In this document: piece after piece, positions 1 to 64,000 of the stretch
Layout of the letters: each line of letters starts with the position of its first letter
How positions within the stretch are numbered: position 1 is the first letter of the stretch
NCBI GenBank assembly: GCA_024672315.1
Contig: GCA_024672315.1_4714.1
Strand: one strand, 5' to 3'
DNA: 64,000 nt
Origin: a phage
Made by a program: the position numbers and the translations under genes
Notes under the pieces: generated by a model
What the model was told of the DNA's origin: nothing
What the model saw: the letters and a program-made list of their open reading frames with translations, nothing else
Databases searched by the model: none

Positions 1-1137
1 CACCATCGCCAGAGCACCTGGGTTATGCGGACCAATACCACGAGCCGCGTTGCTGATTAAAGACTGTGCCCATGCCATGCCGCTGTTCAGCGTAGCGATG
101 GTACCAATCAGACCCAGCACGAAGCTGTTCGGTGTGAACGCATCCAGCTCCAGCGGGTAAACGCTGGTCATCACGTAACGCGGCTGGTACTGTACAGTCG
201 GCGGTACCGGATAGCCGTTAACCAGAACAGGGCCTTGGTTGAAGGTCGGGTTCTGCGGGCTGTAGGTCAGGTCAATGTAACCGGTGGTGGCGACCAGACG
301 CTGTTGACTATCGTAATCGCTCATCGCTTGACGGATGCGGTTAGAGATAGTTACAGTGATGTCAGAACGCACAGGGTTACCAACAATATCGCTGTCCTGC
401 ATACCGCTGGTGTTGTACTGAACGCTGCTGATTGGCTGATCGCTTGCCATCATGCCCAGGTTGAACTGCGGCAGACCCAGTTTATCACCGAGACGGATTT
501 CGATCGCGGTTTGGATTGCGTTATCTGCAGCAGACAGCAGGGTGGTTGCCAGATGCGCAGATTCAGCGGTGATTTCATTGGTCACCACAGCCAGACCAGC
601 GATACGAACAGTACCGTTAGACTTACCGCCAATAGCTGAATACATTGCCGCCATGACTTCGTTGATGAACGTACCGTTCAGGTTATCAACCCAGGTACGC
701 GGTACCAGAATGTTACCATGCGGACCTTGTTCTTCACGACGCGGCAGCGGAGCCAGACCAGCAACCAGCGGCAGGACGTAACCGAAGAAGTGGTTATGAT
801 CACCAACTTTTGCACCGCTCATAACAACCAGGGTCGGATACGGTACGCTGTACTGGTTCGGGTCAACCGCAACAAAGATGAAGTCGTCTTTGAACTGGGT
901 ATCTTCCAGATATTTCTCCATCAGACGACGGAGATTCAGTACCTGCTCGGAGCCGGTATTACGGCTGATACGACGGCTCAGTGTACGGTTGATCGTACGC
1001 ATCGTATGAGTTACTTTAGGACGGTCGGCAAAATCTGCAGCGGTTTCCAGCGCCTCATCAGCACGTTGTGCGGTGCGGGTTTCAGCTGCACGAATTTCTA
1101 CATTATCGTTACCGTTATTACGTACGTCTAAGCCCAT
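1..1137 (-). CDS. Highly expressed protein of unknown function, truncated by the window edge (at least 378 aa, N-terminus MGLDVRNNGND)
   Basis: Uninterrupted minus-strand reading frame from ATG at 1137 to the window edge; strongly biased codon usage (CGT, CTG, GGT, AAC) typical of abundant proteins; plus-strand ORFs listed here are shadow ORFs. Preceded by early-promoter-like motif at 1208-1240. Confidence 0.7.
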   Translation of the reverse strand, partial: MGLDVRNNGNDNVEIRAAETRTAQRADEALETAADFADRPKVTHTMRTINRTLSRRISRNTGSEQVLNLRRLMEKYLEDTQFKDDFIFVAVDPNQYSVPYPTLVVMSGAKVGDHNHFFGYVLPLVAGLAPLPRREEQGPHGNILVPRTWVDNLNGTFINEVMAAMYSAIGGKSNGTVRIAGLAVVTNEITAESAHLATTLLSAADNAIQTAIEIRLGDKLGLPQFNLGMMASDQPISSVQYNTSGMQDSDIVGNPVRSDITVTISNRIRQAMSDYDSQQRLVATTGYIDLTYSPQNPTFNQGPVLVNGYPVPPTVQYQPRYVMTSVYPLELDAFTPNSFVLGLIGTIATLNSGMAWAQSLISNAARGIGPHNPGALAMV

Positions 1138-1207
1138 TTGGGATTCCTCTTTTCTTAAACTTTATTAAATGACGTCATTGAATCAGCTTCTACTCGCTCA
1201 TTCACCT

Positions 1208-1240
1208 AGGTAATATAACCCTGAAATTTTTTTCAATATT
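1208..1240 (-). promoter_or_regulatory. Early-promoter-like motif copy 1 (minus-strand reading TATTGAAAAAAATTTCAGGGTTATATTACCTA)
   Basis: One of three near-identical ~33-nt elements (A-tract plus TATATTAC), about 70 nt upstream of the leftward gene start at 1137. Confidence 0.5.
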
Positions 1241-1391
1241 GGTGTAACCGCATTGAACGATATAAACCCCTAGGCGAACGCTGCCGAGAAGCAACATTCT
1301 TTCTACATATAATCAGGATATGTCTGTAAACTTTTACTTCTCTTATTGAGAGTAATGTCATATCCGTTTACCATCTTCTTACGGAGTTCGT

Positions 1392-2486
1392 ATGTTTCGT
1401 GTTTTAAATAACCTCCCGCGAACATCATCGGGTGTGCAACCCGTCCCTCAGAAAGACTATCTAATACGCGAAGTTCAAAGAAACCTACAGACAATCCAGA
1501 ACCACTATCAAGGTTTTACCTTCGCGGTTCAGAGCGATCACATCCTTGCGTTGCTGCTCGCACAGCTCCCTATGAGATACGACATCTCAGTACAAACTTA
1601 CTACGACATGATTCTCGATCTTACCCCAGAATTGGGTAATCGTGTCAAGTTGACAACATCAAGATACGCGGGTAAGTTATTCGACGGTGCTTTCTATCCG
1701 GGATTGCACGAAGCTATTATTGCAACCGGTGAAAGTCGTCTTATTTCACGTGACGTTCTTGATAACTGGCGTAATTGGTCACCAGTTAGAATCGTGACGC
1801 ATCCATACGCAAATCTTCGTTACATTCCTCTTCACCGAAAGCAGATTGAAGAAGGACGAGGTTTTGCGGTTATTATGGTTGATGTGCCTTTATTAGCGCT
1901 ACAGTATCGAATGTGGTCTTTGGTCATGGGTCATAACGACGACGGTAAATGGGTGGTTAAAGAACCGGTTACAAGCTTCCTTGCGAGTTTTCCGTTGGTT
2001 AACGCATTATACTCACACAACGATGTTGTTATACGCAATCGTTGTTTATGGATATCTCCGGCTAAGAATCCACTCAAATCACCAATTTACGTTAACGACC
2101 TTGATAACGTATTCAGCCAAGTCGTTCTGTCCGTACAGCATCATTTATTACGAAGAAGACGAAGCTACACCGACATGCTTAAACAGATACCGAGTTTATA
2201 CGGAGATCAGTACCAAGCAACCCGAATGGGCTACACCGTCGATCTTCGACAAACACGATGGGCAAGGGATCTGGGTTGTCTGTCATTATGGCAACAACTC
2301 GTCACATTGCAAAACGTATCTGAAAGCGTCGGGTTCAGCAGTCAAATCGATAATGACCTGTATCGTGCTGCCGACCGAAGTCTAAAAGAAGGTAACTGGG
2401 AGTCCTCTCCGTTACCTGGCGATTTAAGACGTGAAGTTATTGCACAGGTTGCCGACCTCTTAAAAATTCTTCCTGCTGGTGCATAA
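1392..2486 (+). CDS. Hypothetical protein (364 aa)
   Basis: Long ORF with ATG start preceded by a purine-rich RBS-like sequence (ACGGAG); no recognisable motifs. Confidence 0.6.
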   Translation: MFRVLNNLPRTSSGVQPVPQKDYLIREVQRNLQTIQNHYQGFTFAVQSDHILALLLAQLPMRYDISVQTYYDMILDLTPELGNRVKLTTSRYAGKLFDGAFYPGLHEAIIATGESRLISRDVLDNWRNWSPVRIVTHPYANLRYIPLHRKQIEEGRGFAVIMVDVPLLALQYRMWSLVMGHNDDGKWVVKEPVTSFLASFPLVNALYSHNDVVIRNRCLWISPAKNPLKSPIYVNDLDNVFSQVVLSVQHHLLRRRRSYTDMLKQIPSLYGDQYQATRMGYTVDLRQTRWARDLGCLSLWQQLVTLQNVSESVGFSSQIDNDLYRAADRSLKEGNWESSPLPGDLRREVIAQVADLLKILPAGA

Positions 2487-2489
2487 TCA

Positions 2490-2535
2490 CCTCCCTCTTC
2501 CCTTGCATCCTCCCAACCCGTAAGGGAAGGGAGGA
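2490..2535. terminator. Imperfect pyrimidine/purine-arm hairpin between convergent genes (candidate bidirectional terminator)
   Basis: CCTCCCTCTTCCCTT ... AAGGGAAGGGAGG inverted repeat between the + gene ending at 2486 and the - gene ending at 2553. Confidence 0.4.
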
Positions 2536-2552
2536 TGGGGTGGTGGATTATG

Positions 2553-4706
2553 TTACTCTGTGGTTTCTCGCTTCGGTAAATAACTTGCTGCAATGTCTTG
2601 GGCTAACAATGTATTGTTTTTATTCGAGATGAAAATACCGTAACTTTCCATTAACGCGTAATACGAACGCACGAGCGTAGAGATCAATCGACGAATATCC
2701 ATACCTTGAATAAAGATATCGGGAAGCCCGGAGGCTTCGATCACCGGTAATGGTATCGTTAAGTTGCTTATCGTTTTCTTATCGTTACGTACAATCCAAT
2801 CACGGAAACGTTGTTGTAACCCTTTATCCTCCCAGGAATCAATCCAATCGTTAAGAAGCGTTTTGTTCTTCGTCGCCAACGGCACACGAACCCCAACATA
2901 GGGTGGTTCCTGGCAATGGCCGTACGATTGAGCAAACACCTCTTCCCACATATCGTAAGACTGTTTCGTTACTGCAACATGCGGTTTCACTTTAACACGT
3001 GTTAAGAAATCAGGATCACCACGTTTCATGGACTCAACGATTTCGTTTTCTAACGAGATAATATCGTCAAGAACCAATCGAATGCTGATCTTCTCATTAC
3101 GTAACAGCTTATCCATGATACCGCACATCATGCGTTCAACACGTTTGACGATCATTTTTGGTGCTGACGCATCGCGCATAACCGGACCTTTCAATTCCAG
3201 CTTCGGTGGATTGATAGGAACCCCTTCACGCATGGTCATGTAACCGTAATAGTTTTTACCCATCGAGGTTAACGACAGAATCAAGAACATATATTCGTTC
3301 TTCATTTCCATCACGTACATATGCTCTTTCGCCACACCGATATTACCAGAACACATCGCCATCAGATGGACTGTAATCTGCGTAACCAGATAGATAAGCG
3401 TGTTTGCTAAGCGCGTCGAAACTGGATTGATCTCCATATTTCCAAATCGCCACTGAACCCACTCCTGGCAGGTAAACACTGTCGAGTCGGTATCAGACAA
3501 CACACCCACTTCACGGATTGCTGATGGGAAAGCATAAACGCCAGCCGGTTGATTCTCGGTACGCCAGAACGCCATAATCAAATCAGCGTAGCTTTGGATA
3601 CGCTGTAGCATTAATTTTGTCGTTGCTGCGGTAAGACGATAACCAAGTTCATTTCCTTTTTCTAGCGCTACGTAAATCGCCTCCCCATTCAAGAACTCCG
3701 TGCATTGTGCTGTAATCCAAGCAACCGTGTTGTTATCCATGGAAGCAATAATGGCTTTAGCCTCTTCCATCGTTTCAACAGGTTCGGATGCCAGTTCACA
3801 TAACGAGTCAAGAAAATCTCGAACAAATTCAGGATTAAGCTCACGTAACGAGTACAGGTTATTGCTGTACATGTAGCAGGCGCGTTCTAATGGCGTTAAA
3901 CCGGTAATTAGCTCCCGGATGGTCAGCTCTTTCTCTGGGTCGAAAGTATATCGATGCAAGCATTTCGATACGTTAGCCCAAACCTCTTCCGGCGTAGGGT
4001 AATGCAGTTTGTATTTTACCATTACCTGCTCAATGGCTTTACGATCGCTATTACGAACAATGCTCACGATGTTTTCAATTGCGATATCACAATCGTAATA
4101 ATGGAAATTGCCCGCAAGGAAGCGTTCGTTGTTCGCATTGGCTGAACCTGAAGCACAGCGACATGTTGTCGTTAAGCTTGGATGCGCAATCGGATTATAA
4201 AAAGGGTTGAACTTGGACGCCTGGGTTCCTGACAAACTGTTGTTATCTAACTTGGTGTTGGTTTGTCGCTTATCGTGTAACTCAGCTTCATCTTTACGTC
4301 CGTGTGCTTGTGCTATCGACATTTGTTTCTTTTGTTTCTTACGCAACTTACCGTTTTCAACCGCAAAGTCGCTTAGCACACTGGAGCGTGTCTCACGTGG
4401 ATAACAGTTAGCCCACACCGGCGTGATAATTAAATTATTTTCTTTAATATCGTTGAAGTATTGGCTGAACTTGATGACTTCTTTTTCACGATTTCCTTCG
4501 GTACGCTGTGTTAATACCAGGCAGTCGGGATCAACCATCCCGTATTTTCCACCAGGACGAACCGTTTCAAGAACAAACTGCAACGCTTCCTGCTGAGATA
4601 TCCCACGCATGCGCATTAAGAATAGGGTATAATCCTGTACCGCTTCTTTGGTCATATCCAACGTACGACCATATCCGTTTTCATCGTAAAAGAACGGATT
4701 TTCCAT
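2553..4706 (-). CDS. Hypothetical protein (717 aa)
   Basis: Long ORF; ATG at 4706 preceded by TGGAGGATTT (RBS); no motifs confidently recognised. Confidence 0.7.
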   Translation of the reverse strand: MENPFFYDENGYGRTLDMTKEAVQDYTLFLMRMRGISQQEALQFVLETVRPGGKYGMVDPDCLVLTQRTEGNREKEVIKFSQYFNDIKENNLIITPVWANCYPRETRSSVLSDFAVENGKLRKKQKKQMSIAQAHGRKDEAELHDKRQTNTKLDNNSLSGTQASKFNPFYNPIAHPSLTTTCRCASGSANANNERFLAGNFHYYDCDIAIENIVSIVRNSDRKAIEQVMVKYKLHYPTPEEVWANVSKCLHRYTFDPEKELTIRELITGLTPLERACYMYSNNLYSLRELNPEFVRDFLDSLCELASEPVETMEEAKAIIASMDNNTVAWITAQCTEFLNGEAIYVALEKGNELGYRLTAATTKLMLQRIQSYADLIMAFWRTENQPAGVYAFPSAIREVGVLSDTDSTVFTCQEWVQWRFGNMEINPVSTRLANTLIYLVTQITVHLMAMCSGNIGVAKEHMYVMEMKNEYMFLILSLTSMGKNYYGYMTMREGVPINPPKLELKGPVMRDASAPKMIVKRVERMMCGIMDKLLRNEKISIRLVLDDIISLENEIVESMKRGDPDFLTRVKVKPHVAVTKQSYDMWEEVFAQSYGHCQEPPYVGVRVPLATKNKTLLNDWIDSWEDKGLQQRFRDWIVRNDKKTISNLTIPLPVIEASGLPDIFIQGMDIRRLISTLVRSYYALMESYGIFISNKNNTLLAQDIAASYLPKRETTE

Positions 4707-4767
4707 AAATCCTCCAAAAGTTATTTAGTCTGTCTACATCATCTCGTATATCTGTTAAAAAAGAAGG

Positions 4768-4809
4768 ACGGCATAAAAAAGAACCGATCCAGCCGAAGCC
4801 AGATCGGTT
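4768..4809 (-). promoter_or_regulatory. Hairpin plus TTTTTTATGCCGTCC element upstream of the 717-aa gene (candidate terminator/late-promoter module)
   Basis: 8-bp stem AACCGATC/GATCGGTT followed on the coding strand by the U-rich TATGCCG motif, about 60 nt upstream of the ATG at 4706. Confidence 0.45.
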
Positions 4810-5005
4810 AAAAAGGATAATAACTGACAGAAAGATATCGATGATGTTCGTGAAACAAGATCTTCTCTCGTGCACAATGATGCTAGATCAGAGGGAGGTT
4901 GTAACACGAGAGGCGATTCGCCAAAGAAGGAATAAAAAACACGAATCTATCTTATTTCACTGATGGCACTAACCACTCAAAATATATAGTACTGTATGTA
5001 AAAGT

Positions 5006-5419
5006 TTACTGATTAATCAAGTCGTTAGCAACAATCTTAGTGTAACCTGCCTGATTAAGAATCTGATTAATTTTCGTCACGTCGGTCGCATCCTCAATAA
5101 CGATGCTGGGTTTATAGATCAGCGTCTTGGTAACGACGATTGTACTCTCCTTAATCCAAGGAATCCCTAGAATCACATACTCGCCATCGGCTGTAATGAC
5201 CTCGACGTAATTGTATCTCGTCGGATCGTTCGGTACACTAGACGGGAGCCGGGAATAAATCTGTTGGTGAATGGCGTCTACATCACGGCCGTTGCGCACA
5301 GCCGTACGATAATTGTACACGGCGCTAATTTCTACTCCGTTGAAGTTAACCCCAAGTTCTGGGGCGTATACATCAAAACTCACAACAGAGCCAATCTTTT
5401 CTAAATCAGAAGCTGGCAT
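5006..5419 (-). CDS. Hypothetical protein (137 aa)
   Basis: ORF in a co-directional minus-strand gene array. Confidence 0.55.
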   Translation of the reverse strand: MPASDLEKIGSVVSFDVYAPELGVNFNGVEISAVYNYRTAVRNGRDVDAIHQQIYSRLPSSVPNDPTRYNYVEVITADGEYVILGIPWIKESTIVVTKTLIYKPSIVIEDATDVTKINQILNQAGYTKIVANDLINQ

Positions 5420-5430
5420 AATAGCATCCT

Positions 5431-5952
5431 TTATTTAAAAATGTATTCGTATCCGAAGGTCGTCGCCGACCAGACCCGGATAGATGATAGTGTTCCGCCA
5501 CGATAAAACGTTTTTGTGAATTCCATATCCTGGGCAACACGATAATAAACACGTCCGATAATACGCACGATAAGGTTTCGTGATAACGATCTCTCCTCGC
5601 AGTACTCATCGATAAAGTCATCGTCGATATCCGATAAGACAACATCTGCAATTTCTTGCAGTAGATTCCTCATCAGCATCTGCCTTCCTTCGGTACCCCA
5701 CCCAGACAAACAGTAATCGTCTTCTGCCTGACTATAGATGTCGTTAACCGCCTGTTCGAGCAGTTGCTCAAGATAGTAGTCATCGCGTTTTATAACGTGG
5801 CGACGGCGCTCAGTGGCGTATTTTTCCATCCTGTGTTTCTCTTGTTCGGCGTATGTATTAACGACGCCACAGTCTTTTCTGGATCGTCCCACAATGCACG
5901 ACGAAAACTGGATACTACCATAACGGTAGGATAGATTTGTACAACCTCCCAT
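5431..5952 (-). CDS. Hypothetical protein (start uncertain; may begin at internal Met near 5829)
   Basis: ORF overlaps the upstream ORF 5790-6278 by 163 nt in another frame; an internal ATG (MEKYATERR) would reduce the overlap to about 40 nt. Confidence 0.4.
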   Translation of the reverse strand: MGGCTNLSYRYGSIQFSSCIVGRSRKDCGVVNTYAEQEKHRMEKYATERRRHVIKRDDYYLEQLLEQAVNDIYSQAEDDYCLSGWGTEGRQMLMRNLLQEIADVVLSDIDDDFIDEYCEERSLSRNLIVRIIGRVYYRVAQDMEFTKTFYRGGTLSSIRVWSATTFGYEYIFK

Positions 5953-15837: not shown

Positions 15838-15942
15838 TGCATTGCCTTCCGCGAGTGTAATCAGGAAGGTAATGTAGGTTTATTTTAATCTCCATTTCGC
15901 GATGATATGACAGTCTTTATTACGTTTACCATCTGAGGGAGC

Positions 15943-29567: not shown

Positions 29568-30047
29568 TCAGTCTTTCAGCAGCTCAGCTGCATACGCACT
29601 GATGTTGTCGCGAATATGCTTAACCTGAGTTGTTGGGAAAGATTTCTTATACGCGGTGGTCAGGCGTCCGTAAACCTGTTTCTTCTCGTTAGAGCCGAAA
29701 CCAACTTCAGCGCTGCGTTGAACGGTTGCGGACACAACGTCTTTGCCCAGCGGCAGGGTTACAGAAACAACGTCAACCTGTTTGTTATCCGCCATGAACT
29801 GCGCGCCAACGCGGCCAACCGCCAGACCGTGAGCCAGACCGATATCGGTGGTCAGTTTCTGTGCTTTTTCCAGGATTTCTTTTTCTTCCGGTGTTACCAG
29901 AGTACCCAGGAAATCACTGCCTAGCTTCTGGCTACCAGATTCGTCCAGTTTAATACCAGCGGCGATTTTATCAGAAAGAGCCTGAACTTCCGGACGTACG
30001 TTAGAAGTGGTTTCAGTCGCTACGGTGGTTTCTACAGCTTCAGACAT
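29568..30047 (-). CDS. Highly expressed small protein of unknown function (159 aa)
   Basis: Very biased codon usage; preceded by early-promoter-like motif copy 2. Confidence 0.7.
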   Translation of the reverse strand: MSEAVETTVATETTSNVRPEVQALSDKIAAGIKLDESGSQKLGSDFLGTLVTPEEKEILEKAQKLTTDIGLAHGLAVGRVGAQFMADNKQVDVVSVTLPLGKDVVSATVQRSAEVGFGSNEKKQVYGRLTTAYKKSFPTTQVKHIRDNISAYAAELLKD

Positions 30048-30167
30048 GTTAATACTCCAATTAGTTTTTTCGATCGATCAAAAGGATAAAATCAGAAGAT
30101 TCTTTCTTCATAGGGAAAACACAAGTCGGTTAAGGTTTACTTCTTAAACTCCTTGCGTTCTATCAGT

Positions 30168-30201
30168 TAGGTAATATAGACCTCAACTTTTTTCCAATAA
30201 T
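30168..30201 (-). promoter_or_regulatory. Early-promoter-like motif copy 2 (minus-strand reading TATTGGAAAAAAGTTGAGGTCTATATTACCTA)
   Basis: Near-identical to copies 1 and 3; about 125 nt upstream of the leftward gene start at 30047. Confidence 0.5.
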
Positions 30202-39986: not shown

Positions 39987-40505
39987 CCTTGTCTTCGCCT
40001 CAGGTCGCTACGCTGAGACCGCCTGCGTGGATACGTACATCACAGGCTGCTTGCACTTTCATGCAAGAGGAGACTATATCAAACCGTCAGCTTCACCTGC
40101 TACGGTAACCTACACTTCGAAGACGCTTGTCCTCTACAGGGTGGTAAATCCCTTAGTCGTTGAACCTGCGTTGTTTCACATTCTTGTTTGCAAGAATGCC
40201 GTATTGCTACGCAACAACCAGGCTGCTGATTGCCCATTATCACGCACCTTAGCACCGCTTACGCGGCTTTTCTTTCAGCCTAAGCCTCCGTGGGAGGTAG
40301 TGCATCTCAACTGTTGTTTCCGCCTTTCGGCACCTCATGGGTTGTTGAGCTTTAGGGGTTCCCAGCAATTCGTAGGTTTTTCAAGCACTCCCTTTCGGGA
40401 ATACCGGACCAATTCAGTTAGTAAACAACATTATTACCATCCCTCATTCTTAAGGGTTAATTTTTTAAAATGATAAAATTAATGTGTTTTTGGGCTAACT
40501 CGAAG
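39987..40505 (-). other. Group I self-splicing intron (about 519 nt) within the RNAP beta-prime gene
   Basis: On the minus strand in canonical order: P-like AATTGCTGGGAAC (plus 40358-40370), Q-like AATCAGCAGCC (40221-40231), R-like GTTCAACGACTAAGG (40151-40165) and S-like GATATAGTC (40072-40080); exon 1 ends in U, the intron ends in G; no long ORF on the intron coding strand. Confidence 0.75.
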
Positions 40506-42217: not shown

Positions 42218-45200
42218 ATGGTAGATAAAACCCGTGTTGAGGGTGATGATAATTGGGATAACTGGGATGAAGACTTCTCCCTGGATCTCGATTTCAACGA
42301 ACCCAAAGACGATCGTAAACCGATAACACGCTTTGCGATAGGAGCGGTTAAAGGTGCCGCTGAGGATCTTACTTCCTACGAAAGAATGAAGGAGATCGCC
42401 AGAAACGCATTGCCTAAGGGCTACAGCGACGGTATGGATCTTATCGATTCCGCCGTCGGATCCACGAAGGAACTATACAATGAAGCCGTTCGTGACGTTC
42501 TTCCTAAGGTCCAAAGCTCAAAACGGTTAGCTGCACAACTGACCAAGAAATACCGCGCGAGCATGCCCGATTTCTCGAAGAAAATTCTCGAGCAATGGGA
42601 GCGAGAAGCCAAGGAAGAAGACGAACGTAAACATGCTGAAGAAACCCTTCGTCAACGCATGGCGAGCGCGGGGGACGATGAGATTGCCCGCAAGGTTGCC
42701 GAGGCATTAGGCGAATCAGCAAACCAAAACGCGGATCAGTTCGCTGAACAGCAAGCGAAAGAGAGTATCCGTGACGATATCGCTGATAAACGGTACGCTG
42801 TAACCAACAAACAAATGAGTGCGATGCAAGAAGGCGTCGCCAAGATGGTTGGTTTCAACAACGAATTCGCTGCACGTTACATGCGTAAAAGCCTGGAACT
42901 GAAATATCGTTCCTTAGCGATTCAACGTGCAAGTTTTGATCAGCATAAAAAGTTAGCCGAAGTCTATATCGGTTTATTACAAAACATCCAGAAGAATACG
43001 GCTTTACCTGATGCGGCTAAAGCGAAAATGTCGGAAGAATTCCGTCGTAGCGCATACCAACGTTTCTTTGGTAATGCGTTAGATGCGATGGGTTCTTTCG
43101 AGAACCGTTTCTTTGCCGATGTTAAGAAGAACCTTGCCACCAACGCATTAGGTGCTTTAAAAGGCGTCGTGTCTGGCGCAAACGATGCGTTATACGGTTT
43201 AAACGAAGCGCGTGACTCGATGTCCATGATGGACGGGATGGGGTCAGAAGGCGATATTAAGGAAATGCAAGGAAAGATGTTGGGTCAGTTCATTGGCTCA
43301 ACTGTCGCACCATGGATGGCTAATAAAGGCAGGATGGCGTTACGTGATTTAGCAAAACGCCACCCCAATGCTAAATTCGCAAGTGCGTTAAAAGCCGTGG
43401 ATCAAGGTGGTGAGGCTGCCGCTTACACGACGCGTAATCTCGGTAAACTGCTCCAGGAAGATATTCGTAAAAACGAATTCAATCTTAGCGATCCGTTTTA
43501 CAAGCAATTAATACGCGGCGCAGGGCGTTGGGCGTTCAACATGGACAGCGGACGTAACTTCCGTGTGATGAACGACACCGCTGAAACGCTGGCGGAGCAA
43601 ACGTCTTTCGACGGTTTAACCTACCGCAGCATCAACGAGGTTATTCCAGGCTTTCTTGCACGCATTCTGAAAAGCAGTGAAGGTATCCGCACCGGAAACA
43701 GCGATCCTGACTACGAGGTCTATGACGGCATCAGCGGGCAATTCGTGTCTCAGCGCACGCGTGAGCAAAGCGTCAACGACACACTGTTTAACAAACGTAC
43801 GTTTGGTTATTACGCCAGCCGTTTCAACGAGGTTATCTCGGTCATCGATCCCGATAAGAAATTATCGGAAAAAGCCAGGAAGGCACTGGCTAAGCAGCTG
43901 GCACGAGATAGCGACGCAAACATCGCATTCGACCCAGCTCGTTTTACGGATGAAAGCAACTTCGATCGTAGTATTGACCGCGACGCTATTAAGGAACTTT
44001 CCACGTACTTTCGTGATCGTTACGGTATTCGTGACGATATCAACGATAAGGGCGAACGTCATCAGGTCATTGGAAACCGCGGGCAATATTACACGGAACG
44101 TAACCGAGCTGACCTTCGCTACGGTAATCTGAAATCTTTACAGCCGGATATTCAGCGTAACCTTAACCTACTGAAACGTACTGGTGACGTCCAATATCTG
44201 GAACGTATTGGTATCGTAACGAGAAATAGCGACGGAAGCTACTCGGTTAATCACGATCGGTATTTCTCTGAAATCGATCGATACATCGACCGACCGGAGT
44301 ACGCTGAACGTAACGACGTTAATACGCGATTAACCGCTCAGGAAACAAGAGCGCTGGCGTTGGGTTATCGTGACGCAAAACCATCAGCTGATGACGTCCA
44401 AAATGCGGGTCTGCCACACATCGGTCGTAAGGCTGTTGGAACAGTAACCGTTGATGAAAACATCGGCTACGATAAATGGTGGAACGACACAGGTGTTATC
44501 ACCACATCGCTTGAAGAACAGAATCGAGCGTGGCAAGAACTCTATCTCGAAGCGTTATCTGAAGCATCCGAACAACGTACTGAAATGCTTGCGTTACTGA
44601 AAGCCATTTCTGAGAAAGACCGGTCTAATAACGTTTCGTTGGACGGCGAAGATGTACCTGAAGGTACGGCACCCATTTCATTTATCGATCGTGCCAAACA
44701 AAAACTCGGTGCACGCAACCCCTTTAAAGGCGGCCGTAATCTCCTCTGGAAAGGAATTAAAAATACCGCACGTTGGGGTGTTAAAGGCGCGCGCTGGGGT
44801 GCAGAACGCACGTTGGGTAGTTTGGTAAATTCTGGCCGTCGCATTATCAATTTCAACCGTTTTGTGTTCGGTGCATTATCCAAAGTCGATCAGGTTCCGT
44901 TTGACATTTACGTTAAAGGGGAATCCCAACCACGCATACTGGCTGCTAAACTTCGTCAGGGGTTATACTTCGACGAAGCGACAGGAAAAGCCGTAAAACG
45001 GATGAAGGATATCAAAGGCCCACTCGTTGATGCTGATGGAAACATCGTAATCAGCAACGAGGATATCGAGAAAGGGTTGGTCACTCGCGCGGGTCGTGCC
45101 TTTGAGAATTCAGGACTTAAGGCGTGGGCACGTGAAGGTCTTAATGGAATCACGACGGTATTAAGTCTACCACGGATGTTAAAACGCGGTGCGGTCGAGA

Positions 45201-48200
45201 TCTACAAACAGCTTGACAAGACGCCCGACGTTTACGTCAAGGGAGAATCAACGCCTCGTCTGTTGTCCATGGTGTTAGCAGCGGGTGGGTATTTCCGTCG
45301 GTCGGATGGACAAGTCATCAAAAATCTTGAAGACATCGATGGTGATGTTGTTGATGCACAAGGTAACGTCGTACTTACGCTTGCCGACATGCAGAAAGGA
45401 CTTGTCGATAAATACGGTAAAGCGATTCGTCGCTTAAAAGAAAAGCTCATCAACTTCGGTGTAAAAGCTTTTACGTTACCGTTAACGCTGCTACGTAAGA
45501 CAAAGGACATCCTTAAAGCCCTTCCAGGTAAAGCCGTTAACGGTCTACGACGGATGGGATTAAACTTCCAATCACCTGACGCATTACTGGTGGGAACAAC
45601 GTCGAGTATGGTAGATCGTCTCGATGCGATTTACCAGCTTCTTGACCAGCGTATGCCGGGTGGTGATAAGGATTACCGCGATTGGAATGGCGATGGTGTT
45701 CGAGAAGGATCGCTGGAAGACCTAAAACGTAAGCGTGAAGCCAAGGAAAACGGTAAGGACGACACCGGCAAAGATTCCAATAAAGGGGAAGAAAAGGAGA
45801 AGAAACGAGGATTACTCGGAAGCCTTTTCGATATGCTCGGCGATACCGCATTAGGCAAACGACTCATGGCGAGTCCGCTTGGAAAAATTCTAGGTGGTCT
45901 TGGGGCGGTGTTAAGCGGCGGTGCATCGTTAACCGGGTTGTTGGGCAAGGGTCTCATTAGTGGAACCGGCGCGCTGGTCAAGGGGGGACTAAGTGCGGCA
46001 GGATGGTTAGGACGTGGTGCGTTAATGGCGGGTGGGGCCGCGTTGAACGCCGTTGGTGGGTTATCGGGATTAGGTGCATTCCTTATCTCACCTGTTGGGC
46101 TTGCTATCGCTGGCGGTGCATTGGCTGCTTATGCTGGATGGAAGATCTATCAGCATTTCGCTGAGAAGCCTGACCCGATGCAGAAACTCCGTCTTATTGC
46201 ATACGGTGCAAAAGGGGACGATAAAGACTTCAATAAGAAGCTGCTTGCGACAGAAACATACCTCACCGATCACGTGGTTATGACCGGGGATACCATCGGA
46301 TTCGATCCGAAAGCGGATTCTGAAAAGATTCTCGAAATCTGGGAATTGTCCCTGGAAGATTCCGACCGAATGAACGAATGGAAACGCTGGTATCTGCATC
46401 GTTTTATTCCTGTTTTCGCTCGTGCGTACAAACTCTGGAAAGAGCATATGCCGGACGAGAAGAAATACATGGAAATGGATAAATATCCGAACGGTGAGAA
46501 CAAAGTGAAATGGTCGGAAGCGTTTATCTGGCCTTCCGATAGTCCTGACGGTCCGTATTACGTCGAAGCTAACCCGTTGGGTTCTTCTGGTGCGACGCGT
46601 TATATTGCTGGTCAAGACGTCAAAACCTTGATGCTGAAACAACTCGAAGCCATCAAGAAAGAGTACCAGAATCAGATTAAGCAATACACTCATGATGAGG
46701 CTATTGCTGATTGGTCACGGATGTCTGACACGCAACGTAAATCCGTTGCGCCTAACGCATTACGCGGTCAGAAAGCGTCGTTACGTTTTAACGATAAACG
46801 TTACAACAGTGCTGGCGCTAAAGGACGACAGAAGCTTGACGCAACCGCGGTTATTGAAAGCGTAGACCGTCGTGGTAGAAAATGGGTTGCCGGTGGATAC
46901 ATCGATGAACTCACCAGTCTCCGTGTTCGTGCGTACGGTATCAAGGTTCCGTTGTTAAGTCAGATAAAAGTGCTGATGGAACTCGAAGACGCTGTAGAAC
47001 CTGGCGTAGTCGCTGAAGGTAAAGGTGTTAAATACGGTGGCGATCTTGTTGCGCTCTACAAGAAATTCGCGACGAAGTTCGGAAGAGACGTTAACAGCAA
47101 GCGGGATCAGGATATCTGGTTCGCTTGGATGAATAACCGTTTCCTGCCCGTCTTTTTAACCTATTACCAACAAGTTAGCGACATGGGCGGTCAAGGACTT
47201 CTGTCCGACGTGGTACAGAACCTGAAAGACAGCCAACGCTGGGAAATCGGTGAAGCACTTGTCGCAACGCAATACCGTGATGAGAAAGGTACACTGCAGC
47301 CTGTATGGTCCTGGAATAGTTGTGGTTTCTCCGGTACTGAAGCTAACACCACCAGCAGTTCAACAAAGAGCCAGCTCGATCTGTTAAAAGAATATGCGGA
47401 TAAAGAGAAGGTTCGTGAGAAGAACGCGGAAGCATCGCAAGAGGATGCCGATAAATTATCGAAGATCCAAGAGCTGATGATGAAGCAGGCTGGGTACGAG
47501 AAGAAAGACGGTGTCTGGCAGAAGAAATCACGCATTACCGGCGGGATGAGTAACGCCGAAGCGAATTACAACCCCAATGGGAATAGGGTAGGTGCAAGCA
47601 GCTTTACTGCTTCGGCTACTTCCAGTGCTGGGTTGGGGTCAACCGGCGATCTTACTGGATTGCCTAACATGGGCTTACAGAAACCTGCAATGGGACCAGG
47701 TCCTGAAGCTGGACGTCGTGCGCTTGTTAAATCCGCTGTAAAACGCGGCATTACCGATCCAATGGAAATGGCGATGTTCCTCGCGAACATCGAACATGAA
47801 TCAGGGAACTACACTCACGTACGTGAGGGGAACTATAAGACACCAGAGCGTCTTAAACAGGTCTTCCCTTACAAATTCCGTGATGTACAGGATGCCGCAC
47901 AGACGATCAGCATGGGGCCGGAAGCGGTATTCGAACGTGTGTATGGTAATCGTAAAGATCTCGGGAACACACAGAAAGGGGACGGGGCGAAGTATTTAGG
48001 ACGTGGCTTCATTCAGGTTACCGGTAAAGCTAACTACGCTCGTCTGTCCAAGACCTTGAATAAGGATCTTGTCAGCGATCCGACATACCTGGAAACGCCG
48101 GAAGGTGCGGCGGAAGGTAGTGTCGCATGGTGGCTCAACCGAGGTAACGTGTTACGCGATCCCGCAAAACGGGGTGATGTACGCCAAGTTCGTTATCTGG

Positions 48201-52280: not shown

Positions 52281-52793
52281 TTAAACTTCTTCGTTTTCTG
52301 AACCTAGTGATTCAGCATCTGGATCGTCAACAGGAATGGTTGCGTCAAAATACCGTTTCGTATGCGTGGTTGTATATCCTACGCTATCTGTGATGGAAAT
52401 CGTAAACGTGACTTCTCTTGCACGGATTAAGCGTAGTTTATTCATGAAGTTACGGAACGGCATCGATCCCCGATTCAACTCCTTAATGACGTTTCCCCGA
52501 ATACTGGAAATGTCTTTATTCGTTTTATCAGGATGTCGTTTCTTCACATCACGCATATGTCGGGTAATATACGAATTGAGCTGATTTGCGCCGATCCCTC
52601 TCTCCGTATAAATCTGCAACAGGAACTCCGTAAGGAAATCCTGTCTACCCGTAGGCGTCCAGAAATTGTTACCGTGATTGTAGTTAGTCGCTCGTCCTCG
52701 ATTGCTTTGAGGATTTTCATCATCGCTTTCGTCACGACGCTTAAGCGGATTAATGCGCGCGCGAAAAGAGACTTCATTATATTTATTTGTCAT
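52281..52793 (-). CDS. Hypothetical protein (start re-assigned to MTNKYNEV)
   Basis: The track start at 52838 is a TTG codon; the first ATG is at 52793 and overlaps the upstream stop. Confidence 0.5.
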   Translation of the reverse strand: MTNKYNEVSFRARINPLKRRDESDDENPQSNRGRATNYNHGNNFWTPTGRQDFLTEFLLQIYTERGIGANQLNSYITRHMRDVKKRHPDKTNKDISSIRGNVIKELNRGSMPFRNFMNKLRLIRAREVTFTISITDSVGYTTTHTKRYFDATIPVDDPDAESLGSENEEV

Positions 52794-53305
52794 AATACAC
52801 CAGTGTACTGACTGAGTGCGAAGGTTAGGAGTTCGCAACAGTCTCTCGCTAGTTTCCTTGTTTTGCGTAATCCATAAGCCGCATCCAAATCGTCACGTTC
52901 CGCCAGCGCGTCTAACCACGTCGCAAGTATGCGTCCATACTCGATAACGTCACGCATGAGAACGTCGAACTGGATAACACGACCATCGGCATCAGCAAGC
53001 CAACGATTGAATGTGATTTGTGGTGCTAGTATTGCATATGTTCTCTCCTCTAATGCTATTATGTTTATGTTGCCTTCGTTATCGAACGCTTGATGCCAAC
53101 GGCGAAGGTCAAGCATCAACGACTCAGCGTCCATATACCACAACGGTAAATACGTTTTACGTGCAACGCGTATATCGTAGATGTTGTGAACCCAGGACGT
53201 TGTTTTGTAAAGCAACAAGAGTTCGTTTAACCGTTGCCTATCATCTTGAAACGTCTTCCTTTTATAACGTTGGAACGCACGCCTCAAGAAAAAGCGATGT
53301 AACAT
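52790..53305 (-). CDS. Hypothetical protein (171 aa)
   Basis: ATG at 53305; first gene downstream of early-promoter-like motif copy 3. Confidence 0.6.
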   Translation of the reverse strand: MLHRFFLRRAFQRYKRKTFQDDRQRLNELLLLYKTTSWVHNIYDIRVARKTYLPLWYMDAESLMLDLRRWHQAFDNEGNINIIALEERTYAILAPQITFNRWLADADGRVIQFDVLMRDVIEYGRILATWLDALAERDDLDAAYGLRKTRKLARDCCELLTFALSQYTGVL

Positions 53306-53394
53306 GGCATCACCTATGTATCATTCTTGCAGGCATCAATGAAGCCATCACAAGAAGGTAACGTTATACGTCGCCTTCATGACTGTCATCATGA

Positions 53395-53426
53395 AGGTAA
53401 TATAGTCCTGTTATTTTTTTCAATAC
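53395..53426 (-). promoter_or_regulatory. Early-promoter-like motif copy 3 (minus-strand reading TATTGAAAAAAATAACAGGACTATATTACCTT)
   Basis: Near-identical to copies 1 and 2; about 95 nt upstream of the leftward gene start at 53305, in a divergent intergenic region. Confidence 0.5.
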
Positions 53427-63986: not shown

Positions 63987-64000
63987 TTATGCCGTCAAGC

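Follow-up and report, generated by a model that had tools for sequence, protein, structure and literature searches.

A Goslar-type chimallin gene at the edge of a 64,000-nucleotide stretch of jumbo phage DNA and a candidate early promoter family with a copy upstream of it

The DNA analyzed here, a stretch of 64,000 nucleotides from contig GCA_024672315.1_4714.1 (hereafter the window), begins within an open reading frame that occupies positions 1–1137 of the minus strand. The ATG start codon of this gene, chmA, lies at 1137–1135 (minus strand) and the frame continues without interruption to base 1, so that 379 of 631 codons are visible and the remaining 252 extend past the left window edge. A preliminary description made from the sequence had already recognized an ORF running off the window edge, although its count of 378 visible residues is corrected to 379 by translation. 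The ribosome-binding site of chmA is strong: direct reading of the sequence places a Shine-Dalgarno sequence, AAGAGGA (1145–1151, minus strand), 7 nt upstream of the ATG. Further upstream, 66 nt from the gene, lies a long promoter-like motif, TATTGAAAAAAATTTCAGGGTTATATTACCTAGGTG (1203–1238, minus strand). A second gene (1392–2486, plus strand; 364 aa) is divergent from chmA and the two have a 254-nt intergenic region in common. The product of this neighboring gene, which has an E. coli codon adaptation index (CAI) of 0.218, matches PHROG 3938 (unknown function) at 4e-53; its match to a PHROG of virion structural proteins is weak. No sigma-70-like sequence was matched in the chmA orientation between positions 1138 and 1391.

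Three plus-strand ORFs of 109–137 aa (235–639, 452–781 and 718–1131) lie antisense within chmA. Comparison with the corresponding gene of phage Goslar, from which the fragment differs at 37 nucleotides, ruled these out as genes: read in the minus frame the differences leave the residue unchanged in 28 codons and replace it in 7, whereas the synonymous/non-synonymous counts for the three plus-strand ORFs are 0/6, 4/4 and 1/14, respectively. The minus frame is thus the frame under selection, and the antisense ORFs are by-products of strong codon bias.

What this gene encodes is apparent from several searches. A phmmer search of the PDB aligned all 379 residues of the fragment with the Goslar chimallin chain 7SQT (E=3.5e-248; fragment residues 1–379 against chain residues 4–382), and the other Goslar chimallin structures, 7SQU and 7SQV, were matched as well. 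In a tblastn search of phage genomes the fragment found the Goslar gene annotated as nuclear shell protein (gp189, YP_009820873.1) with 98.2% amino acid identity (372 of 379 residues, seven substitutions) and 96.7% nucleotide identity; beyond Goslar, the sole other match in that search was a weak one to Pseudomonas phage Noxifer. The preliminary description had put forward a nuclear-shell protein as a candidate while finding no family signature. The candidate proved correct and such signatures do exist, since both Pfam family PF25677 (Chimallin_Phikzvirus; 44.1 bits against a gathering cut-off of 27, E=1e-11) and PHROG 4795 (nuclear shell protein; 2.3e-20) recognize the fragment. More distant chimallins were also matched in the PDB, namely PhiPA3 PhuN (gp53; 8FNE) at 5e-9 and 7SQQ at 1.8e-5. 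We take 7SQQ to be gp105 of phage 201phi2-1, given its 634-residue chain and an entry number adjoining that of 7SQT. These two proteins are distant in sequence from the fragment but belong to the same family and have the same fold, a two-domain core with NTS, CTS1 and CTS2 tails that assembles into a square lattice. The visible part of the two-domain core in the window aligns gap-free with the solved Goslar chain 7SQT at 98% identity, by which its fold is assigned from sequence. Each defining chimallin feature open to testing is present. We conclude, with a probability of roughly 97% and with no contrary observation, that window positions 1–1137 are the 5′ 60% of chmA from a Goslar-like jumbo phage of E. 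coli and Salmonella.

Over its full length the window runs collinear to Goslar positions 171763–237291 at 96.7–97.1% DNA identity, with one larger difference, and the source phage is a member of the genus Goslarvirus in the nucleus-forming family Chimalliviridae. In the Goslar annotation the collinear stretch carries a DNA polymerase, the tubulin PhuZ, a terminase, a tail sheath and several split RNA polymerase subunits. Pfam searches of the window ORFs recovered a divergent family B DNA polymerase (PF20286, 681 bits), a phiKZ gp29 sheath domain and a tubulin-like domain whose score (29.9 bits) is below its cut-off of 33. A group I intron (RF00028, 63.6 bits; 40050–40434, minus strand) lies between RNA polymerase beta-subunit ORFs. 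Adjoining it, the window (40411–40504) is without about 1.57 kb of Goslar sequence (212227–213796) containing gp206, an ORF similar to phiKZ ORF179 that the Goslar annotation places beside the intron; if gp206 is a homing endonuclease, the window intron has lost it and the locus is a presence/absence polymorphism. The right end of the window (63990–64000) falls about 16 nt short of the end of the Goslar record (237291–237307 / 1–56). Each terminus of that record has a run of 16–17 A (positions 40 and 237292), and these runs may represent either a terminal repeat or an artefact of the reference assembly.

Overlapping contigs were found through an exact protein match of the neighboring gene at 1392–2486. 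Both of the read-archive contigs recovered in this way also encode a 631-aa chimallin. One of them, L004 (SRR13871333 contig 173), is identical to window positions 1–2535 with 0 mismatches and therefore extends the window leftward. In L004 the full chmA gene (3854–5746, minus strand) is an intact ORF of 631 aa, which provides the complete frame that the preliminary description had suggested obtaining from adjacent sequence. The full-length protein scores 98.3 bits against PF25677 over residues 19–596 of 631. It corresponds to Goslar ChmA in gene, genomic position and length, and the region upstream of the Goslar gene is nearly identical, sharing both the promoter-like motif and the Shine-Dalgarno sequence. 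Between the two full-length proteins 615 of 631 residues are identical, and the dN/dS of about 0.11 shows that chmA is under purifying selection. Seven of the 16 substitutions relative to Goslar are within the window (G38D, Q39R, R81Q, A167S, A177V, A326V and T338S) and nine are past it (Y436F, K439N, E441D, E443K, R445Q, V461T, L474Q, H488Y and V621G).

Domain boundaries were carried over from 201phi2-1 chimallin, the N-terminal tail of which comprises residues 1–47 (PMC9365700), and moved by about −5 residues according to the phmmer offset to 7SQQ; they are for this reason approximate. On the minus strand of the window, the N-terminal tail (approximately residues 1–42; 1012–1137), which holds G38D and Q39R, is followed by the N-terminal interacting segment, or NTS (approximately residues 43–56; 970–1011), by the N-terminal alpha/beta domain (approximately residues 57–223; 469–969) with R81Q, A167S and A177V, and by the beginning of the GNAT-like C-terminal domain (approximately residues 224–379; 1–468) with A326V and T338S. 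About 155 residues of this C-terminal domain are inside the window. CTS1 and CTS2 are outside it and present in L004, where V621G is the sole change after residue 488. CTS2 is shorter in Goslar than in 201phi2-1 chimallin (PMC9365700).

In a comparison of 16 Goslar-type chimallins, variable patches were confined to residues 38–40, 76–90, 167–177, 326–338 and 436–488. The predicted NTS is invariant among these proteins, as is most of CTS1 and CTS2, and no substitution relative to Goslar affects the NTS. The substitutions relative to Goslar fall in patches that vary among other Goslar-type chimallins. Clusters are found in the full-length protein at residues 436–447 (five changes relative to Goslar) and 455–488, and these clustered substitutions may mark exposed surface loops. 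The exact ChmA protein is present in NCBI under the name hypothetical protein [Escherichia coli] (HCJ5982503.1 and HCJ8148490.1) and on 31 draft-assembly and read-archive contigs of up to 240 kb, and its 90% cluster has 249 members, many of them from Salmonella isolates. No copy of window positions 1–4000 was found in complete RefSeq E. coli genomes, so the sequence does not derive from a finished E. coli replicon of that set.

Codon usage in the chmA fragment is far from that of the rest of the window. Using the weights of Sharp & Li (1987), the fragment has an E. coli CAI of 0.616, while the mean of the remaining 59 ORFs is 0.277 (sd 0.086; z=3.9), and none of the 60 window ORFs has an Nc below its value of 34.4. 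When ChmA was recoded with window-average codon usage the CAI was 0.280 ± 0.019 with a maximum of 0.351 in 2000 trials, which puts the observed value at z=17 above chance. The description of this codon usage as the most extreme in the window therefore stands by Nc and among ORFs longer than 160 aa but is not strictly true by CAI, where chmA is second to a 159-aa ORF at 29568–30047 (0.649). The next ranks are taken by the tail sheath (0.472), the virion structural protein adjoining it (0.454) and PhuZ (0.384), so that CAI behaves here as a proxy for expression, and we infer that the chmA codon bias reflects very high expression. The top-ranked ORF at 29568–30047 (minus strand; Nc 34.9) matches PHROG 9746 only, with no Pfam match, and like chmA it is preceded by the long promoter-like motif (30164–30199, minus strand). 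Its product, too, is probably an early protein made in very large amounts.

Two other accounts of the ORF at 1–1137 deserve consideration. A strong codon bias could also arise in a major capsid or other virion protein made in large amounts late in infection, and the high CAI values of the tail sheath and its adjoining structural protein in this same window illustrate the point. However, the fragment matched chimallins only in Pfam, PHROGs and the PDB, with no capsid or other late structural family among the matches in these three resources. Homology of that kind, which the preliminary description had named as evidence against a shell protein when proposing comparison with chimallins and capsids, is thus absent. 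The major head protein of Goslar is encoded elsewhere, at 43439–45661, and 98% identity to a solved chimallin already refutes the notion of a late structural protein, to which we attach a vanishingly small probability. The other account is that the gene is a decayed or truncated chimallin remnant, a pseudogene or non-functional paralogue, instead of a working shell gene. Since the window shows part of the ORF only, integrity of the frame is unreadable from the window alone. The overlapping contig, however, carries the frame uninterrupted through all 631 codons, the dN/dS is low and third codon positions account for 28 of the 37 nucleotide differences, the exact full-length protein recurs on the 31 contigs noted above, and the position is that of the single Goslar chmA. 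A remnant is in our judgment highly improbable, and a working shell gene is the reading we retain.

The promoter-like motif upstream of chmA, to which the preliminary description had called attention, is real: it is non-random and phage-specific. The long form occurs as three copies in the window against 0 expected. Its core, TAYATTACYTNNNTG, was found by pattern search at four window sites (1203–1217, 15862–15876, 30164–30178 and 53390–53404), each on the minus strand, although chance predicts just 0.04, and the copy at chmA is identical at the Goslar chmA site. The Goslar genome (NC_048170) has 13 copies of the core, all again on the minus strand, at positions 2567, 15067, 43266, 49732, 86705, 113797, 142800, 160791, 166069, 172978, 187639, 201944 and 226695. 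The strict long motif has only three copies genome-wide, which at first spoke against a general promoter. K-mer enrichment in oriented upstream regions of the full Goslar genome then gave TATATTA and ATATTAC as the top 7-mers and exposed a wider motif family. The Goslar copies share an extended AT-rich consensus, tAAt.cAaaa..tTTcAcG.cTAtATTACcTa.gTGA, alternatively written tAAt.cAaaa..tTTcAcG.cTAYATTACYTnnnTGA, in which an invariant G (part of an invariant TG) lies exactly 6 nt after TAYATTAC. Runs of at least seven A were also considered as promoters and rejected, being mostly the tails of terminators on the opposite strand.

Three copies of the motif, those upstream of chmA, ORF 29568–30047 and ORF 52790–53305, carry an additional TATTGrAAAAAA tract, and we propose that this tract, TATTGAAAAAAA, is the mark of a putative strong promoter subclass. 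For the remaining two genes that have the long motif upstream, and for the neighbor at 1392–2486, neither PHROGs nor Pfam assigned a function, and the Goslar accessions of these three genes are absent from the searchable literature. A literature search for the string TATATTAC likewise returned no relevant match. Of the four window genes that follow a copy of the motif, one has a CAI of only 0.193, so the motif is not always paired with codon bias. As a separate observation, Goslar intergenic regions contain recurrent C-rich/G-rich hairpins, CCCTCCC...GGGAGGG, followed by TTATGC(C/T)G (examples for minus-strand genes lie near NC_048170 positions 140960, 180580, 86830 and 62360). They resemble the conserved intrinsic terminator motif of phiKZ that ends in TTAT (PMC10914365), and the TATG within the motif could be a late-promoter start, as in phiKZ.

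The architecture of the Goslar-type motif suggests a function. The mapped early promoter of the AR9 virion RNA polymerase is AAATATATATTAT-(6N)-G+1, also given as TATATTAT-(6N)-G+1 (PMC5312081). Early promoters of the AR9/phiKZ type and the Goslar-type motif have in common a long AT-rich element with TATATTA(T/C) and an invariant G exactly 6 nt downstream, and the copies, few in number, are highly conserved and consistent in strand. They differ in that the upstream half of the Goslar-type motif (tAAt.cAaaa..tTTcAcG.c) is unlike AR9 and in the extra tract of the three copies that include chmA. By motif enrichment and analogy with AR9, then, the copy at 1203–1238 is a candidate early promoter for the virion RNA polymerase. 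AR9-like spacing would place the transcription start of chmA at the G at position 1203, which predicts a 66-nt 5′ leader (1138–1203, minus strand). Tentatively, and at less than even odds, we suggest that the 13-copy single-strand motif is the early promoter of the Goslarvirus virion RNA polymerase and that the three tract-bearing copies are a stronger or "immediate" subclass that would put the shell protein first.

The motif could instead be a middle or late promoter used by the non-virion polymerase, an operator bound by a phage regulator or some other recurrent element. No map of Goslar transcription start sites was found in the searchable literature, and the 13 copies are few beside the 175 Goslar genes expressed by 5 min (PMC10541120); the motif-preceded gene of low CAI also fits such a role. 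Against it, the architecture agrees with that of the mapped AR9 early promoter, and the features of the motif fit those of phiKZ-like virion-polymerase promoters, which are long, AT-rich and highly conserved with a start 6 nt downstream (PMC5312081). Moreover, the long leftward gene arrays lie on the strand that carries all 13 copies, so that few promoters could serve many genes. Finally, chmA mRNA is made when the vesicle stage alone is present: in the arrested Goslar vesicle the early program of the virion RNA polymerase continues and chmA mRNA is, by RNA-seq, at control levels (PMC10541120). Taken with this evidence, a role other than that of an early promoter seems to us unlikely, if far from negligible, and we proceed with the early promoter as the working interpretation.

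Work on the Goslar protein, which is nearly identical, indicates the mechanism in which this gene would act. The core of chimallin consists of two domains, alpha/beta at the N-terminus and GNAT-like at the C-terminus, and is flanked by flexible tails; docking of the NTS on a neighbor gives C4 tetramers, CTS1 and CTS2 link these tetramers into a square lattice, and deletion of the NTS or CTS segments abolishes assembly (PMC9365700). The protomers of Goslar and 201phi2-1 superimpose with an r.m.s.d. of 1.8 Å at 19.3% identity (PMC9365700). Published work on Goslar has shown ChmA to be essential: its knockdown stops infection at the membrane-bound early vesicle, and DNA replication starts only once the genome moves into the ChmA shell (PMC10541120). 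Direct evidence for early, abundant expression and shell assembly comes from Goslar itself (PMC9365700, PMC10541120); for the phage described here, codon bias, the Shine-Dalgarno sequence and the promoter-like motif are indirect signs. By analogy, the injected genome of the phage described here would enter a membrane vesicle in which co-injected virion RNA polymerase would transcribe the early genes, chmA included, and host ribosomes in the cytoplasm would translate the chmA mRNA. The resulting 70-kDa protomers would self-assemble into a square lattice one molecule thick, the NTS docking on the neighboring N-terminal domain to form tetramers and the two C-terminal segments outside the window, CTS1 and CTS2, connecting them. 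The closed shell, predicted to be needed for DNA replication, would hold phage DNA in and keep host nucleases and ribosomes out.

The chmA gene described here is one allele of a gene that is already known and has a solved structure, and its phage lineage has previously been catalogued in bacterial assemblies; to that extent the finding is an ordinary one. The structure of Goslar chimallin has been determined at 2.3–2.6 Å and knockdown has shown that the protein is needed to pass the vesicle stage. Hundreds of assemblies of enterobacterial isolates are reported to contain Goslar-like phages with chimallins more than 90% similar to that of Goslar (PMC12768965; bioRxiv 10.1101/2024.12.31.630880), the reported hosts being E. 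coli, Salmonella and Shigella isolates; the contigs and the 90% cluster described above agree with this. That the correct gene was reached at first reading from codon bias and promoter context alone is nonetheless worth recording. The early-promoter candidate family with its three-member TATTGrAAAAAA subclass may be new in the searchable literature and offers a modest lead. Its consensus, with predicted starts, is directly testable by Goslar transcriptomics and, if the interpretation is true, the tract-bearing promoter subclass would ensure that the shell protein comes first.
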